A stretch of 16,211 nucleotides of DNA, taken from assembly GCA_041498975.1 (NCBI GenBank), contig JBGQJI010000050.1, positions 1 to 16,211 of the forward strand. The letters run 5' to 3'. How positions within the stretch are numbered: position 1 is the first letter of the stretch; each line of letters starts with the position of its first letter. A program made the position numbers. The DNA is from Candidatus Methylomirabilis sp. (GTDB taxonomy: Bacteria > Methylomirabilota > Methylomirabilia > Methylomirabilales > Methylomirabilaceae). Of the stretch, positions 3,001 to 9,000 are shown one piece after another.

Positions 3001-6000
3001 CGGTGCGGAAATCCTCGATAGCCGCCCGACACCTAGGCAGGGCGTAGTCATCGACAATGACGTACCCACCAACCGAGACCCTGGGATAGAGATACCGGAG
3101 GACGTCCGTGGTCGATTCGTACATATCGCTGTCGAGCCGGAGAATTGCAAGGCGGTCAATCGGGGCGTCCGGCAGGGTGTCCCGAAACCAACCAACAAGA
3201 AAACGGACCTGACTGTCCAGGAGATCATACCGGACGAAATTCTGTTTGACCTCCTCTACCGAAACAGCCAGTTCGGGGAAGGTCCACAGACGATCTCCTT
3301 TGTCGGCGGGGTATCGCTTTGAATCGGGCTTCGGCAGACCTTGAAAGGAGTCGGCCACCCATACTGTCCTATCTGTATCGCCATAGGCTTTCAGCACAGC
3401 CCTCATAAAGATCGTCGCCCCGCCCCGCCATACGCCAGTCTCGATGAGGTCGCCCGGTATCCGCTTGGTGATGACATCCACAACGCAGTGCTGCAGGTTG
3501 TCGAGGCGCTTCATACCGATCATTGTCTCAGCGTCTAATGGCCAGTGACGACCTTCGACACACGCATCGGACGAAACACGCCGAACAAGCTGCAGGTGGA
3601 AGAACGAAAGCAACTCAGTTATCGGCAGAAACAGGGCTCCCAGAACCCCTCGCCTGCCTCGGCCAAACAGCCGGTAGGCATCCCCAAACATTTGGCGAGT
3701 AAGGCATTTCTTGAGGAGGTCGAGGTAGAGCGTCGCGGGATCGCTGGATGCGCAAATAAGGTTTTGGTTCATCGCTTACCTCCCTCGGGGGCTCCAGCTG
3801 TGCCAAGGTCGCCCGAGTGGCCGGCCCCAGCATCTCATTTCCAGACCACCTCGCCATGCCGTACCCTGAGCCGGCTGTCTCAACGATTCAATTCTCCTCG
3901 CTATTGTAGGCTTAGCCCAGTTCCGGTCTCCGGTCAATGGAAAAATCCTGTCAAGATAAAAGTCCTTGACCGAAAAAGTCAAATGAGATATGAAGCCTTC
4001 ATCCGTTGTCGTGGCGATCGAACCTCTCACGTGCGCCGTGAAGACTACGCTACAATAGCCGTCCTGGAGCGCCGATGAAAGCCGATTCGACTCGCGTTGA
4101 ACATCTGTTCGCCGCCGACCGGAAGCACCTCTGGCATTCCCTCCTCCAGCATAGCAGCCTTGAGAAGAAACCTCCGCTGGTGATCCGAGAGGGGAAGGGG
4201 TGTATTGTCGTGGACGAGCACGGGAAAGAGTACGTCGACGCGATGGCCGGCCTTTACTGCGTCAATGTCGGGTATGGTCGGGATGAGATCGCCGAGGCGG
4301 CCATGAACCAGATGCGACGTCTCCCCTTCTATCCGCTCAGCCAATCGCATGAGCCCGCCATCTTGCTGGCAGAGACGTTAGCATCGATCCTGCCTCCGGG
4401 ACTTGACCGTGTCTCCTTCTGCAACAGCGGCTCCGAGGCAGTCGAGACTGCCCTGAAGCTCGCACGGCAGTATGGGCGGCAGGTTCACAAAGGGGAAAAC
4501 CGTTATAAGGTGATCGCCCGCTACCGTGGCTATCACGGCTTCACCATGGGGGCGTTGTCCGCCACCGGACAGGTCGCGCGGCGGAGGGCCTTCGAGCCGT
4601 TGGTCCCGGGATTCCTCCACGTCAATCCACCCGATCGGTATCGGTGCACACATTGCCAAGCGGCCCCTGCCTGCACGCTGGCCTGCGCCGATGAGATCGA
4701 AGCCATGGTTCGGCACGAAGGGCCGGACACCGTGGCCGCCATCATCGCCGAGCCGGTGATCGGCGGCGGGGGTGTGATCCTTTCCCCCGATGGGTACCTG
4801 CAGCGGCTCCGGGAGATCTGCGACCGGTGGGGTATTCTCCTGATCCTTGATGAGGTGATCACCGGCTTCGGTCGCACCGGACTGCTGTTCGGATGCCAGC
4901 ACTGGAATGTCGTCCCGGACATCATGACGGTCGCCAAAGGGATGACGTCCGGCTACCTGCCGTTGGGGGCTGCTATCACCAGCCAGCGAATCTTCGATGC
5001 CTTCCTGGGCGAACCAGGAGAGGGCGTGCATTTTTCGCAGGTGAGCACCTTCGGGGGACATCCCGTTGCGTGCGCCGCCGCGAGCGCCAACCTCGAGATC
5101 CTCCTCCGAGAACGCCTCTGGGAGAATGCTGCGTCGGTGGGCGACTACCTGATGGGACGTCTACGGGCGATCCACCACCCCTGGGTCGGGGAGGTGCGTG
5201 GGATGGGGTTGCTCATCGGGGTGGAGCTGGTGCGGGACGAGAAGAGGACACCCGTTGCCGAAAAAGACTTGGGGCGCCTGTCGGCAGCGATCAGGGAGGC
5301 CGGCGTGATCGTCGGCAGGAATGTGGAAACCGTACCCGGCTTTTGCAATGTCATGATCCTCGCCCCACCGCTGATCCTAACGAAGGACGAGGCGGATCGG
5401 ATCATCGAAGCCATTGAAGCCGGATTGGCGGCCGTTGCAAGAACGGCCGAGGAGGGAGTCCCATGCAACTGATGCGAGAGATGTTGATTCGACACCCGAA
5501 CCGGTGCACCCACAATGCCGTGTGCATCCCGGTCTGCCCGACAGGCGCCTGGCAGGCGACGAAGCCGTTCGGGTTCGAGGCCAGCAAATGCCTGGAAGGC
5601 TGCACGATCTGCATCCAGGCGTGCCCGAGCGGCGCGATCTACGCAACCTACCGGAAGGGCGGGGCAGTTATCGAACCCCGGAAGGCCTCCTAGAGGCTGT
5701 TACCCGCCGGCGATGGCCGGGACGATGGAGACGAGATCGCCGGGCTTCAATGGGGTCGAGGTGCCCTGCAGGAACCGGATGTCTTCCTCATTCACGTAGA
5801 TGTTGATGAAGCGGCGGATGCTGCCGGTCTCGTCGCAGATCCGTTCCCTCAGCCCGCCGTACGACTTCTCCAGGTTGTCGATCAGCTCGTTGATCGAGCC
5901 GCCCTGCTCTTCCACCTCCCCCTGACCCTTCGTGAGTCCGCGAAGGGGCGTGGGGATTCGGACTTTCACGCTCATCTATTCCGCTCCTTTCGGCTGTCTA

Positions 6001-9000
6001 TCGCCATCTTCTCTGTCGGTGCTCAATGCGCATTCCTCGGCGTCACTTCGATCCCGTGAGAGGCCATCGCCTCGTCGAACGATCGAAGGGTCGGTTTGAT
6101 CTGCACCTTCACCTTCAGGTCAGCGGCCACTGCCTCCTGGGTCTTCAGCCCGTTTCCGGTGATGCAGAGCACCAGGCTCTCGTCCTTCGGGATTCGTCCC
6201 TGTTCGATCAGGCGCTTGGCCGCGGCCACCGTGACCCCCCCGGCGGTTTCGGCGAAGATCCCCTCAGTGCTGGCCAGTAACCTCATCCCTTCCACGATCT
6301 CCTCGTCGGAGGCATGCTCGCCGTAACCCCCACTCTCCTTGACGACCTTGTAGGCGTAATATCCGTCTGCCGGGTTCCCGATGGCCAGCGACTTTGCGAT
6401 CGTCTTCGGTTTGACCGGCTTGATGATCTCACTGTTCTCCTTGATGGCGGTCACGATGGGACCGCATCCCTCAGCCTGCGCGACGTGCATCCGCGTGGCA
6501 CAACCGCCGCTCAAGAGACCGAGACGATCGAACTCTTTGAGCCCCTTCGATATCTTCGTGACCAGGGAACCGCCGGCCGCCGGCACAACGATATGCTGCG
6601 GGGCGCGCCACCCGAGTTGCTCTGCGATTTCATAGCCGAAAGTTTTTGACCCCTCAGCATAGTAGGGCCGTATGTTGATGTTGACAAACGCCCAACGGTA
6701 CTTGTCGGCGATCTCGCTACAAAGACGGTTCACCTCATCATAGTTTCCCTCGACGGCCACCAGCTTCGGGTCGTAGATGAGGGTGCCGATAATCTTGCCC
6801 TGCTCCAGGTCGGCGGGGACGAACACAAAGCTTTGAAGCCCGCCCTCGGCGGCATGTGCCGCCACCGAATTGGCGAGGTTGCCCGTGGAGGCGCAGGCCA
6901 CCACTCTGAAGTCGAACTCCAGGGCCTTTGTCACCGCCACCGCCACGACCCGGTCCTTGAACGAAAAGGAGGGGTGGTTGACGGTATCGTTCTTGACGTA
7001 CACCTCCCGCATGCCGAGGGCGCGCGCCAGGTTCCCGGCTTTCACAAGGGGCGTCATCCCACAATGTCTGCCGACGGCGGGCCCACCTTCGATCGGCAGG
7101 AGCGCGCTATACCGCCAGATGCTGGGCGGGCCGGACTCGATCGCCCTCCGGGTCAGCGTGCCGCGAAGCCGATCGTAATCGTAATCGACCTCGAGCGGCC
7201 CGAAGCAGAACTCGCAGACGTGCAGCGGATCCGCCGGGTAAGGCCGGCCGCACTCCCTGCACTTTAAGCCCTTCACCTTCGCCATCTCAGCGCCCCTTCC
7301 CTGGAGTTGGCTCCACCCTGATCCCCAAACCATTCAGGTAGGCAACCCCTTTATTCAACTCTTCTTCTTCGCCATCGAGCTCCACCATGAGCTCACCGGC
7401 CTTCTCCGTCACCCGCGCCCGGCGGATATTGGGGATAATCTTGAACTGCCTGGAGAGGCGGTAGATCACGGGTTCCTTGATGAGCGTCTGTGGAAAGATG
7501 AGGGTGACCATCCGTTTCGGCATCGCGTGATCCCTTTCCCCAAAATCAAAAGCCCCTTCTCGCGAAAATGAGAAGGGGCTGTCAAATTCGACGGCGTCCT
7601 TCTCATCTCTCACCCCGCCCTGTCCGGGATGCAGGAGTTGGCACCACTGTCCGCGGGGACATCTTGCGAACCGGTTGCCGTGGCTTCGCAGGGCCAGTCC
7701 CTCAGCCACTCTGGATGAAAAGGTCAATCTCGGCTATCTAAACAGAACGACCTTTCCCTGTCAAGACAAAATCGACTTTCTTAATAGACCACGTCCTGCT
7801 CGATCGGGGCCACTTGCACGCCTCGCTCTTCCAGCCACTTGATCCCATTCTCGAGGCGCTGAGCATCCCCCTCGAGTTCGGCCATGATCCATCCGATCCC
7901 CTCGGTCACGTCGGCTTGGCGAATGTTGAAGATCAGGTCGAACGTCTGACTGAGCTGCCAGAGAATCGGCTCCTCGACCAGCTTGCCTGTAAACGTCAGG
8001 TGCACCCGCCGCTTTGCCATTTGGATCACCTAGGGTCTAGAGTCTAGCGTATAGGGTTTAGGGTATAGCGTGTAGACCTCAAGGGGGACTGCACAACCTT
8101 TTCGATCATTTATCCTGAACCCTCTACCCTATACCCTCTCCAATCACCGGCCCATAAATCTGGGAGGGCGCTTCTCCAGAAAGGCCTGCACTCCCTCTCG
8201 GAAGTCCTCGGTCTCATAACAATGTAGCGGCCTCTCAGCGTCGGTCGCATTGACCGCCGACAGAGCCGGGTCATAACGGCACTGCTCCACCATTGCTTTC
8301 GCCGAAGCAACCGAGAACGGCGCGTTCGCAGCAATGGTCGCGGCTGTCTCGAGGGTTGTCTGGCGGAGCAAAGGGTCCGGGACGACCCCGTTCAGCAGAG
8401 GCTAGGCAACAGAAACGGCGTTCTCGGACCGGCGGGCACGGGGGGCCAGACCCGAGGCCATGCTACAGAAAGCGCGAGCGGTGTGCCGGGCTTCGGCCGC
8501 AGAGCAAGCACGTCATGAGCACATGGTGGTCCGCCGGCCTGTACGCGGTCACTAGTGCCGTATCACTTAGAGGGTTGAATACTGCCGTCACGATGCTAGA
8601 CGGAATCGCTCTAATTCGCCAGCGCGGCCGTCTTCCTCTAAAGTATCAATCGCTTCGTATAGTTCAGATAGATCCAGGGCACACAGAAGTATCTGAAGCC
8701 AAGAACCTTCCCGGCTCCACTCTGATCCTCCCAGCACAAGTAGAAAGCGTTCCACGGGACGAAGGTGGTGTAAGGACCTGCCCAGACGTGGCCGAAATCA
8801 TCCTCGGCGTAATAGACGAAGCAATGTCCTCCAATCGACCCCGACCACACCTTAGCGGTCGATCCCGGTCCTACTTTGTACCAACCCTTCTTGTACCAGC
8901 CTGCGTCGCACCACGAGTACTCAGAGGAATGCCCATAAGCCACCCAGATAGGTGACGGCGTAGCGTTCTCGAAATAGAGGCCCATGATCCACCACCTATC

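Follow-up and report, generated by a model that had tools for sequence, protein, structure and literature searches.

How does Candidatus Methylomirabilis form homocysteine, and what does a small, free-standing NIL-domain protein do in a SAM-riboswitch operon that otherwise encodes an annotated threonine synthase and a ThiS-like sulfur carrier? We examined this in a window of 16,211 nucleotides, the whole stretch of DNA that was analysed. The preliminary description had given the order SAM riboswitch, NIL, enzyme and carrier ending in GG. That order was borne out on the minus strand, although a second NIL gene (8020-7781) had been missed. Likewise, NIL2, the enzyme and the carrier do lie under the riboswitch as proposed, but NIL1 is upstream and outside its control. 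The features are as follows:

7781..8020, minus strand: NIL1, free-standing NIL-domain protein, 79 aa (PF09383, 63.7 bits)
7736..7764, minus strand: probable sigma-70 promoter for riboswitch-NIL2-metM-metO, inferred from sequence (TTGACA, 17 nt, weak -10)
7600..7721, minus strand: SAM-I riboswitch aptamer (RF00162, full model, 84.6 bits, cut-off 44.4, E 3.7e-19)
7541..7580, minus strand: intrinsic terminator hairpin and U-rich tail (11-pair stem 7580-7551 plus T run)
7287..7523, minus strand: NIL2, free-standing NIL-domain protein, 78 aa (PF09383, 58.7 bits; translation)
6023..7285, minus strand: predicted MetM-type homocysteine synthase, 420 aa, annotated threonine synthase (orthology and context)
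5700..5975, minus strand: MetO-type ThiS/MoaD sulfur carrier, 91 aa, C-terminal GG (PF02597, 59.3 bits; translation, AGG-stop end)

The two NIL proteins are 43% identical. NIL1 has the C-terminal PIExDV tail typical of the family, forms its own clade in the NIL tree, and 25 loci of the order that carry two NIL genes have its orthologue in the equivalent position. NIL2 carries a basic NIRRA motif, lacks the tail, and its stop is one base ahead of the metM start. The promoter TTGACA recurs at the equivalent place in 23 of the 25 two-NIL loci; a consensus scan omits this promoter because its -10 element is weak. The terminator hairpin forms in the predicted fold of the leader and is likely the expression platform of the riboswitch. 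A convergent ferredoxin gene (5463-5693) was rejected as the split half of a NIL-ferredoxin, as it is on the opposite strand and, apart from the closest locus (L001), is not seen next to the operon.

The enzyme, with an N-terminal Cys4 ribbon and PLP fold type II, is predicted from its sequence relationships to be, very probably, a MetM, a family frequently misannotated as threonine synthase (GapMind 2026). In Streptomyces albulus, MetM, MetO, MoeZ and Mec make up a thiocarboxylate homocysteine route (Hasebe 2024, as described in GapMind 2026 and PMC12172450). Closeness to MetM was judged through proxies (Nonomuraea, L223/L224, Microcystis). The window enzyme shares 51-53% identity with actinobacterial SAM-riboswitch/MetM/MetO loci, namely 53% over 403 aa with the Nonomuraea protein of a SAM riboswitch-enzyme-carrier locus and 51-52% with the L223 and L224 proteins. 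The tree places it in one clade with Nonomuraea and two 8-9 Mb actinobacterial loci. A Microcystis protein reported as 51.6% identical to MetM (PMC12172450) agrees with it at 77 of 117 residues in a count made by eye. The three other ThrC homologues of the genome are 36-39% identical and fall outside the clade; among them the hom-linked ThrC (contig C3, 39%) was excluded as the identity of the enzyme, as was cysteate synthase (TIGR03844, 65.3 bits against a cut-off of 324.9). The homologue matches listed came only from Methylomirabilota and Streptosporangiaceae, and a PDB search returned no entry closer to the enzyme than canonical ThrC. Orthology and context taken together make MetM activity highly probable.

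The remainder of the route lies elsewhere in the genome. MoeZ (a ThiS-ThiF fusion) and Mec (a JAB protein) were found on contig C87 using locally built profiles; CysM and sulfite reductase also lie on C87, and a separate hom-thrC pair is located on C3. As in S. albulus, a ThrC-like enzyme thus adjoins a ThiS/MoaD carrier with a SAM riboswitch upstream and MoeZ and Mec at a distance, whereas the one or two NIL genes found here have no counterpart among the listed steps of that route. None of the 11 genomes searched from the genus, the present one among them, has a PF01053 (MetB/Y/Z) match at E<=1e-40; MetX was found in 0 of 5, and DUF39 (PF01837), newly checked, in 0 of the 31 genomes searched, with none in the order. 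Within the genomes searched, the earlier claims that no MetB/MetC/MetY/MetZ-family gene is present at that threshold and that this is the sole visible homocysteine route of the genus both hold. The MetM/MetO reading gains from the absence of other routes and from two kinds of methionine-specific regulation.

The neighbours counted in 80 homologous loci (NIL 65, carrier 74, ThiF 35, JAB 27) were similar to or above those given before. To follow NIL beyond these loci, presence/absence profiles were drawn up for three phylum samples with 373 genomes; a further search, in the phylum of G134, covered just 5 genomes. MetM was present in 134 of the 141 genomes with ferredoxin-free NIL (83/84 in Methylomirabilota, 35/40 in Actinomycetota and 16/17 in the third phylum), and free NIL was near-absent where MetM is missing (7/185 genomes). 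The proposed link between free NIL and the route is therefore supported in three phyla, and NIL in all likelihood belongs to the carrier route, its closest genomic tie being the carrier gene and not MetM. Calling it a regular part was too strong. Of the 187 MetM genomes, 53 have no NIL (18/101, 33/68 and 2/18, in the same order), with clean deletions among them, so that it is an optional accessory. It is likewise absent from 13 kb scanned around the Nonomuraea MetM gene and from two large actinobacterial MetM loci. As stated earlier, GapMind 2026 is silent on NIL, with 0 occurrences in main text and supplements. The literature searched, part of whose results were mostly noise, gave no tie of NIL to ThiS, MetM or LarE. 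As far as the papers searched go, the NIL-accompanied variant of the known MetM pathway is new.

What could such an accessory do? Our main reading, to which we assign a probability of about 0.5, is that NIL is a dimeric methionine sensor exerting feedback on the carrier route. Both window NILs exceed the PF09383 cut-off, have the fold of the MetN C2 domain of the MetNI importer and keep equivalents of its N295 and A299; an equivalent of P281 is likewise kept in free NIL. Among 195 distinct free NIL domains the N295 equivalent is kept in 179 and that of A299 in 195, and the N295A substitution in MetN is reported to abolish methionine binding (PMC6233128). MetN C2 works as a pair. Pairing of free NIL is here a prediction, with clues from tandem fusions and the predicted fold of one tandem. 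NIL recurs as pairs or as tandem NIL-NIL proteins (8/80 loci; 120 listed of 167 longer matches), and one tandem is predicted to fold as a single packed unit (pTM 0.76) whose best structural match is MetN C2 (Z 7.3). Free NIL probably binds methionine as a dimer. Unlike MetN C2, it is free-standing or fused to carrier, JAB or a second NIL, has no ABC ATPase, and differs in a shorter hairpin, the basic NIRRA motif and the C-terminal tail. A conserved Arg occurs in 172/195 free NILs at a position occupied by Leu in 17/19 NIL-ferredoxins; the ligand or partner may therefore differ, a point against this reading. The suggestion that NIL senses methionine thus draws on kept MetN site residues and recurrent pairing, and is weakened by its being optional, tied to the carrier and, in Actinomycetota, placed beside larE.

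That MetM itself is the target is a tentative proposal, rated somewhat below even odds. Complex prediction for dimeric MetM together with a tandem NIL-NIL protein (from one Chthonomonadales locus, L061) scored 0.01, which speaks neither for nor against binding. Candidate MetM residues tracking NIL loss (positions 90, 184, 196, 282, 345 and 378 in 17 related sequences) were unconvincing, and MetM from NIL-less genomes displayed no convincing altered surface, which we counted against feedback. IlvH and IlvN are small ACT subunits that bind amino acids and act in trans on a branch-point enzyme. Subunits of this type are weak fold matches of NIL, although NIL is of a different ACT-like family and its binding to an enzyme is putative.

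In the scheme that we favour, MoeZ would load sulfur onto MetO, MetM would condense loaded MetO with O-phosphohomoserine, and Mec would free homocysteine, while SAM, acting through the riboswitch, would halt transcription. The most likely arrangement of NIL1 and NIL2 is a heterodimer that corresponds, in free-standing form, to the MetN C2 dimer; L-methionine would bind across the interface of this heterodimer, which would then damp the route post-translationally, as an optional feedback module and not a catalytic step. The direct observations beneath this scheme are the gene layout, the riboswitch, the lack of any other route in the searched genomes, co-occurrence, the conserved site residues and the natural NIL-NIL and carrier-NIL fusions.

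Those last fusions allow another reading, unlikely but the strongest of the alternatives, in which NIL works on the carrier side. It would bind MetO or Mec, either as an adaptor or to sequester its partner in a ligand-gated way, and would apportion thiocarboxylate sulfur among MetM, CysM and other acceptors. NIL lies in frame behind the GG of the carrier in 5/80 loci, in 10/17 free NILs of the phylum of G135 and in 14/150 representatives (once with a CysO-like carrier, once with a carrier domain lacking GG), and this frequent arrangement implies release by Mec. Two JAB-NIL fusions occur among representatives, some Methylomirabilales (L003, L007, L137) have a CysM-Mec cluster followed by NIL1, and the single NIL-MetM fusion has a doubtful junction. 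On the other hand, carrier-NIL fusions can be explained as simple read-through, tolerable because Mec trims after GG; their linkers vary in length, and an AlphaFold model of one gave two well-folded domains whose packing is not fixed (pTM 0.51). MetO looks unchanged by eye in NIL-less genomes, and in this genome Mec and MoeZ lie in a separate cluster without NIL. A combined form, which we consider quite unlikely, would make free NIL a methionine-gated switch on a ubiquitin-like carrier, with the carrier-GG-NIL polyprotein of several lineages cut by the JAB protease Mec so that carrier and sensor arise in equal amounts; NIL would then steer thiocarboxylate sulfur to homocysteine (MetM) or to other acceptors such as CysM or [4Fe-4S] LarE.

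An improbable alternative is a general sensor of sulfur or methionine status with several clients, that of Actinomycetota being a [4Fe-4S]-type LarE, which the MetO thiocarboxylate might feed on the precedent of TtuB and TtuA (PMC9283937). There NIL is directly behind larE in 27/35 loci fetched (gap -3 to 43 nt, two NIL subgroups), and LarE is present in 37/40 free-NIL genomes. Yet within LarE genomes NIL tracks MetM (32/50 with, 5/69 without), three of the five MetM-less NIL/LarE genomes have MetM pieces at contig ends, and LarE is absent from G000 and the complete G008, each of which has two NILs. LarE and LarC each occur in 119/161 genomes, so LarE keeps its usual role, and the distance from larE-NIL to metM is 5-25 kb in several cases, as expected of a scattered old cluster.

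In a very improbable reading, the enzyme would be a second threonine synthase or deaminase, with some other purpose for the carrier and NIL. It does exceed the TIGR00260 ThrC cut-off (282.8 against 167.1 bits), and threonine synthase/deaminase activity is reported for the Microcystis homologue, which yielded threonine and 2-oxobutyrate in vitro, but the assays described used sulfide and not loaded carrier (PMC12172450). Control by a SAM riboswitch and, in 4/8 Armatimonadota loci, by T-boxes whose specifier position reads AUG, a carrier beside the enzyme in 74/80 loci, the separate hom-thrC and the failure of the DUF39, PF01053 and MetX searches to find another homocysteine route all argue against it.

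For the NIL-ferredoxin subunit of L-aspartate semialdehyde sulfurtransferase (DUF39; MA1822, DvMF_0262), methionine feedback has been proposed (PMC12068725). There too a NIL domain is tied to a homocysteine-forming enzyme, but both window NILs end without ferredoxin, the order has no DUF39, and the NIL-ferredoxin is required for growth whereas free NIL is dispensable by phylogeny. That free NIL is a roleless relic of such a protein is the least credible reading: NIL is lost repeatedly and MetM-less relatives have it fused to ferredoxin beside DUF39, but its residues are strongly conserved across the 195 domains, it has repeatedly duplicated and diverged into two types, and it occurs in just 7/185 genomes without MetM.

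If NIL is indeed a methionine sensor, it would supply a missing fast feedback layer for a methionine route first described in 2024 and seen across many phyla in this analysis, acting at the point where threonine shares O-phosphohomoserine. From the carrier-GG-NIL fusions one would expect Mec to process a folded passenger protein, in the manner of ubiquitin fusion precursors. The widespread "NIL domain-containing protein" would gain a role, the threonine synthase annotation would be corrected, and methionine synthesis in Methylomirabilis-type bacteria would be explained.

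The preliminary description had placed a single NIL gene in this operon. The gene is there, in two copies: NIL1 and NIL2, free-standing NIL-domain proteins (PF09383, no ferredoxin domain) that are 43% identical and are the only NILs of the assembly. The operon reads as follows:

8020-7781, minus strand: NIL1, first gene of the series
7721-7600, minus strand: SAM-I riboswitch (84.6 bits)
7580-7551, minus strand: terminator hairpin between the riboswitch and NIL2
7523-7287, minus strand: NIL2, between the hairpin and the enzyme gene
7285-6023, minus strand: ThrC-like PLP enzyme, 420 aa
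5975-5700, minus strand: ThiS carrier, 91 aa, ending GG

Two NIL copies are the rule across the order, and the records closest to this locus come from Methylomirabilota. In 23/25 two-NIL loci, the stretch from NIL1 to the riboswitch contains a TTGACA box; it is therefore probable that NIL2, enzyme and carrier are expressed from a SAM-controlled transcript of their own and that NIL1 starts outside it. The riboswitch motif is absent between NIL1 and NIL2 in three loci of Methylomirabilis-type genomes (L099, L105, L092), and NIL2 of L099 and L101 has Thr in place of a conserved Asn. On the plus strand at 4075-5693, genes for a class III aminotransferase and, next to it, a 76-aa 2[4Fe-4S] ferredoxin converge on the carrier gene; they were seen beside the operon in locus L001 only. 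Positions 8144-8371 (minus strand), 8395-8459, 9270-9612, 13533-13693 and 15613-16117 hold an enoyl-CoA hydratase C-terminal fragment, 5' of NIL1, and two dispersed repeat families resembling remnants of mobile elements (300 nt at 89%; 138 nt at 88%). A TylF-type methyltransferase and two family-2 glycosyltransferases (2933-3772, 11775-13511 and 14031-14798, all minus strand) bear no relation to the NIL-MetM finding.

The comparison covers proxies for S. albulus MetM, and these agree on MetM, the ThrC-like homocysteine synthase, as the very probable assignment of the enzyme. A Nonomuraea protein, encoded in the order SAM riboswitch-enzyme-carrier without NIL, shares 53% identity with the window enzyme over 403 aa. 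Two actinobacterial genomes (8.5 and 9.2 Mb) have this layout too, with a cold-shock gene and groEL coming next, and their enzymes are 51-52% identical to that of the window. These enzymes form one clade with the window enzyme. The three other ThrC homologues of the genome fall outside it (36-39% identity), and one of them follows homoserine dehydrogenase. A Microcystis protein with a published identity of 51.6% to MetM (PMC12172450) matches the window enzyme at 77/117 residues of one stretch, counted by eye; the threonine synthase and deaminase activity given for the Microcystis homologue in the same source counts against the MetM reading. Genome G000 carries a second MetO-like carrier (C241:1744-2016, 54%) with a three-residue tail after the GG, and two further ThrC-like genes (C74:1961-3157 and C35:1133-2341).

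Regarding other routes to homocysteine, the MetB/MetC/MetY/MetZ profile PF01053 has no match at E<=1e-40 in 11 genomes of the genus, and the best of its weak matches in the window's genome is an unrelated aminotransferase. MetX was found in 0/5 genomes and DUF39 in 0/31. Contig C87 of the window's genome encodes MoeZ (a ThiS-ThiF fusion), Mec, CysM and sulfite reductase, and contig C23 the homocysteine-binding part of methionine synthase.

The association of NIL with the MetM route is well supported. Among 80 loci of close homologues, the neighbours found were the carrier (74 loci), NIL (65), ThiF (35) and JAB (27); in 6 of the 15 NIL-less loci the carrier is missing too and the sequence ends shortly past the enzyme. 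The presence/absence profile is a stronger test of membership than these neighbour counts. In Methylomirabilota (121 genomes), MetM and NIL occur together in 83, MetM alone in 18, NIL alone in 3 and neither in 17; two of the three NIL-alone cases are NIL-ferredoxins adjoining DUF39 and the third stops at a contig break. In Actinomycetota (161 genomes), MetM is found in 35/40 free-NIL genomes and NIL is missing in 33/68 MetM genomes, after exclusion of 2 weak matches and of 38 lower-scoring ones that score and frame length, rather than individual inspection, assigned to the NIL-ferredoxins; three of the five genomes without MetM carry pieces of it at contig ends. In the phylum of genome G135 (91 genomes; one 43% match excluded), 16 of the 17 free NILs come from genomes with MetM and lie less than 3 kb from the gene, and 2/18 MetM genomes lack a free NIL. 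Summed over the three phyla, MetM is present in 134/141 free-NIL genomes and NIL is missing in 53/187 MetM genomes. These counts are patterns without a significance test because related genomes are not independent, and they take in genomes marked unpublished (G026, G049, G072, G102, G137, G154, G184, G204, G224, G256 and G282), on which alone no conclusion is based.

The NIL losses are real: in 11/16 fetched loci, the gene that usually comes next stands immediately behind the carrier, and NIL-less enzymes occur at at least five places on a quick tree. From the counts and these losses, it follows that NIL depends on the route but the route can do without NIL. One Methylomirabilota family (L135 and L136, genomes G031 and G073) lacks MetM and has DUF39 with NIL-ferredoxin instead, while G132 and G135 have both routes. 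In Rokubacteriales-type loci (L138-L153), a class I/II aminotransferase gene regularly lies 3' of MetM-MetO-(NIL).

Regulation of two types points to methionine. SAM riboswitches were found in 5/13 loci taken from the 80, in 8/15 actinobacterial MetM loci and in 0/16 Rokubacteriales-type loci, and T-boxes ahead of MetM-family operons in 4/8 Armatimonadota loci (L045:4653-4929, L046, L047 and L052), where the alignments were read as giving an AUG specifier. A chlorite dismutase-family gene lies between MetM and the carrier in these T-box operons (8/80 loci).

The closest solved relatives of free NIL, by sequence and by fold, are MetN C2 domains (Z 7.3, rmsd 2.1 A, 75 residues). In MetN, methionine is bound across the C2 dimer via N295, with A299 marking the strand register (PMC6233128); the equivalents are kept in 179/195 and 195/195 distinct free NIL domains, respectively. 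The methionine importer and the DUF39 homocysteine enzyme also carry the NIL domain (10.1101/192971; PMC12068725). Pairing is recurrent: the 80 loci include 8 tandem fusions as well as 4 gene pairs, and at least 120 of 167 longer NIL matches have tandem-like length and domain content. A quick tree on few columns suggests several independent duplications. In the window pair and two tandem groups, one member retains a basic strand (NIRRA or similar) and its partner the C-terminal tail; one tandem is predicted as a single folded unit (pTM 0.76).

The gene that NIL adjoins most often is the carrier gene. NIL lies in frame behind the carrier GG in 5/80 loci, all five with JAB, in 10/17 free NILs of the G135 phylum (JAB in 5/5 such genomes tested) and in 14/150 representatives, two of the 14 resembling faulty gene calls. 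Such fusions occur in several lineages (L028:6287-6799, L073:6278-6790, L230-L245). Two JAB-NIL fusions were seen, and a single MetM-NIL fusion whose junction is doubtful. Because several carrier-NIL fusions lack a start codon where the two parts join, the carrier would presumably be functional only after a cut behind the GG, with Mec as the presumed protease. A model of one fusion has no fixed packing between the two domains (pTM 0.51), which fits a polyprotein better than a complex. Carrier-GG-ThiF fusions occur in L014, L020, L025, L070 and C87 of the window's genome.

NIL also lies directly behind larE in 27 of 35 actinomycetotal loci fetched (of 40). None of five larE-NIL loci without metM has a riboswitch. 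Among LarE genomes, however, NIL tracks MetM, being present in 32/50 with MetM versus 5/69 without it, and LarE is found neither in G000 nor in the complete G008. LarE in the actinomycetotal loci (L189-L222, e.g., L210:4046-5151) is of the three-Cys type (TIGR00268), and L041 has the order MetM-MetO-ThiF-NIL-LarE.

The thiocarboxylate route and the NIL domain are already known. We found no mention of free NIL beside MetM/MetO, its paired forms, carrier-GG-NIL precursors or the larE link in the literature searched, including the available parts of PMC1779556 and PMC9283937; Hasebe 2024 and Rauch 2014, in which the gene may already appear, lie outside this coverage. In the most likely mechanism, to which we give about even odds, NIL works as a dimer, formed in this operon by NIL1 and NIL2, which binds methionine and slows the thiocarboxylate route. 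MetM is the logical target because NIL stays by metM-metO even where MoeZ and Mec lie elsewhere; the fusions make the carrier side a second candidate. Such a brake would add fast feedback on top of riboswitch control, at the branch between threonine and methionine.
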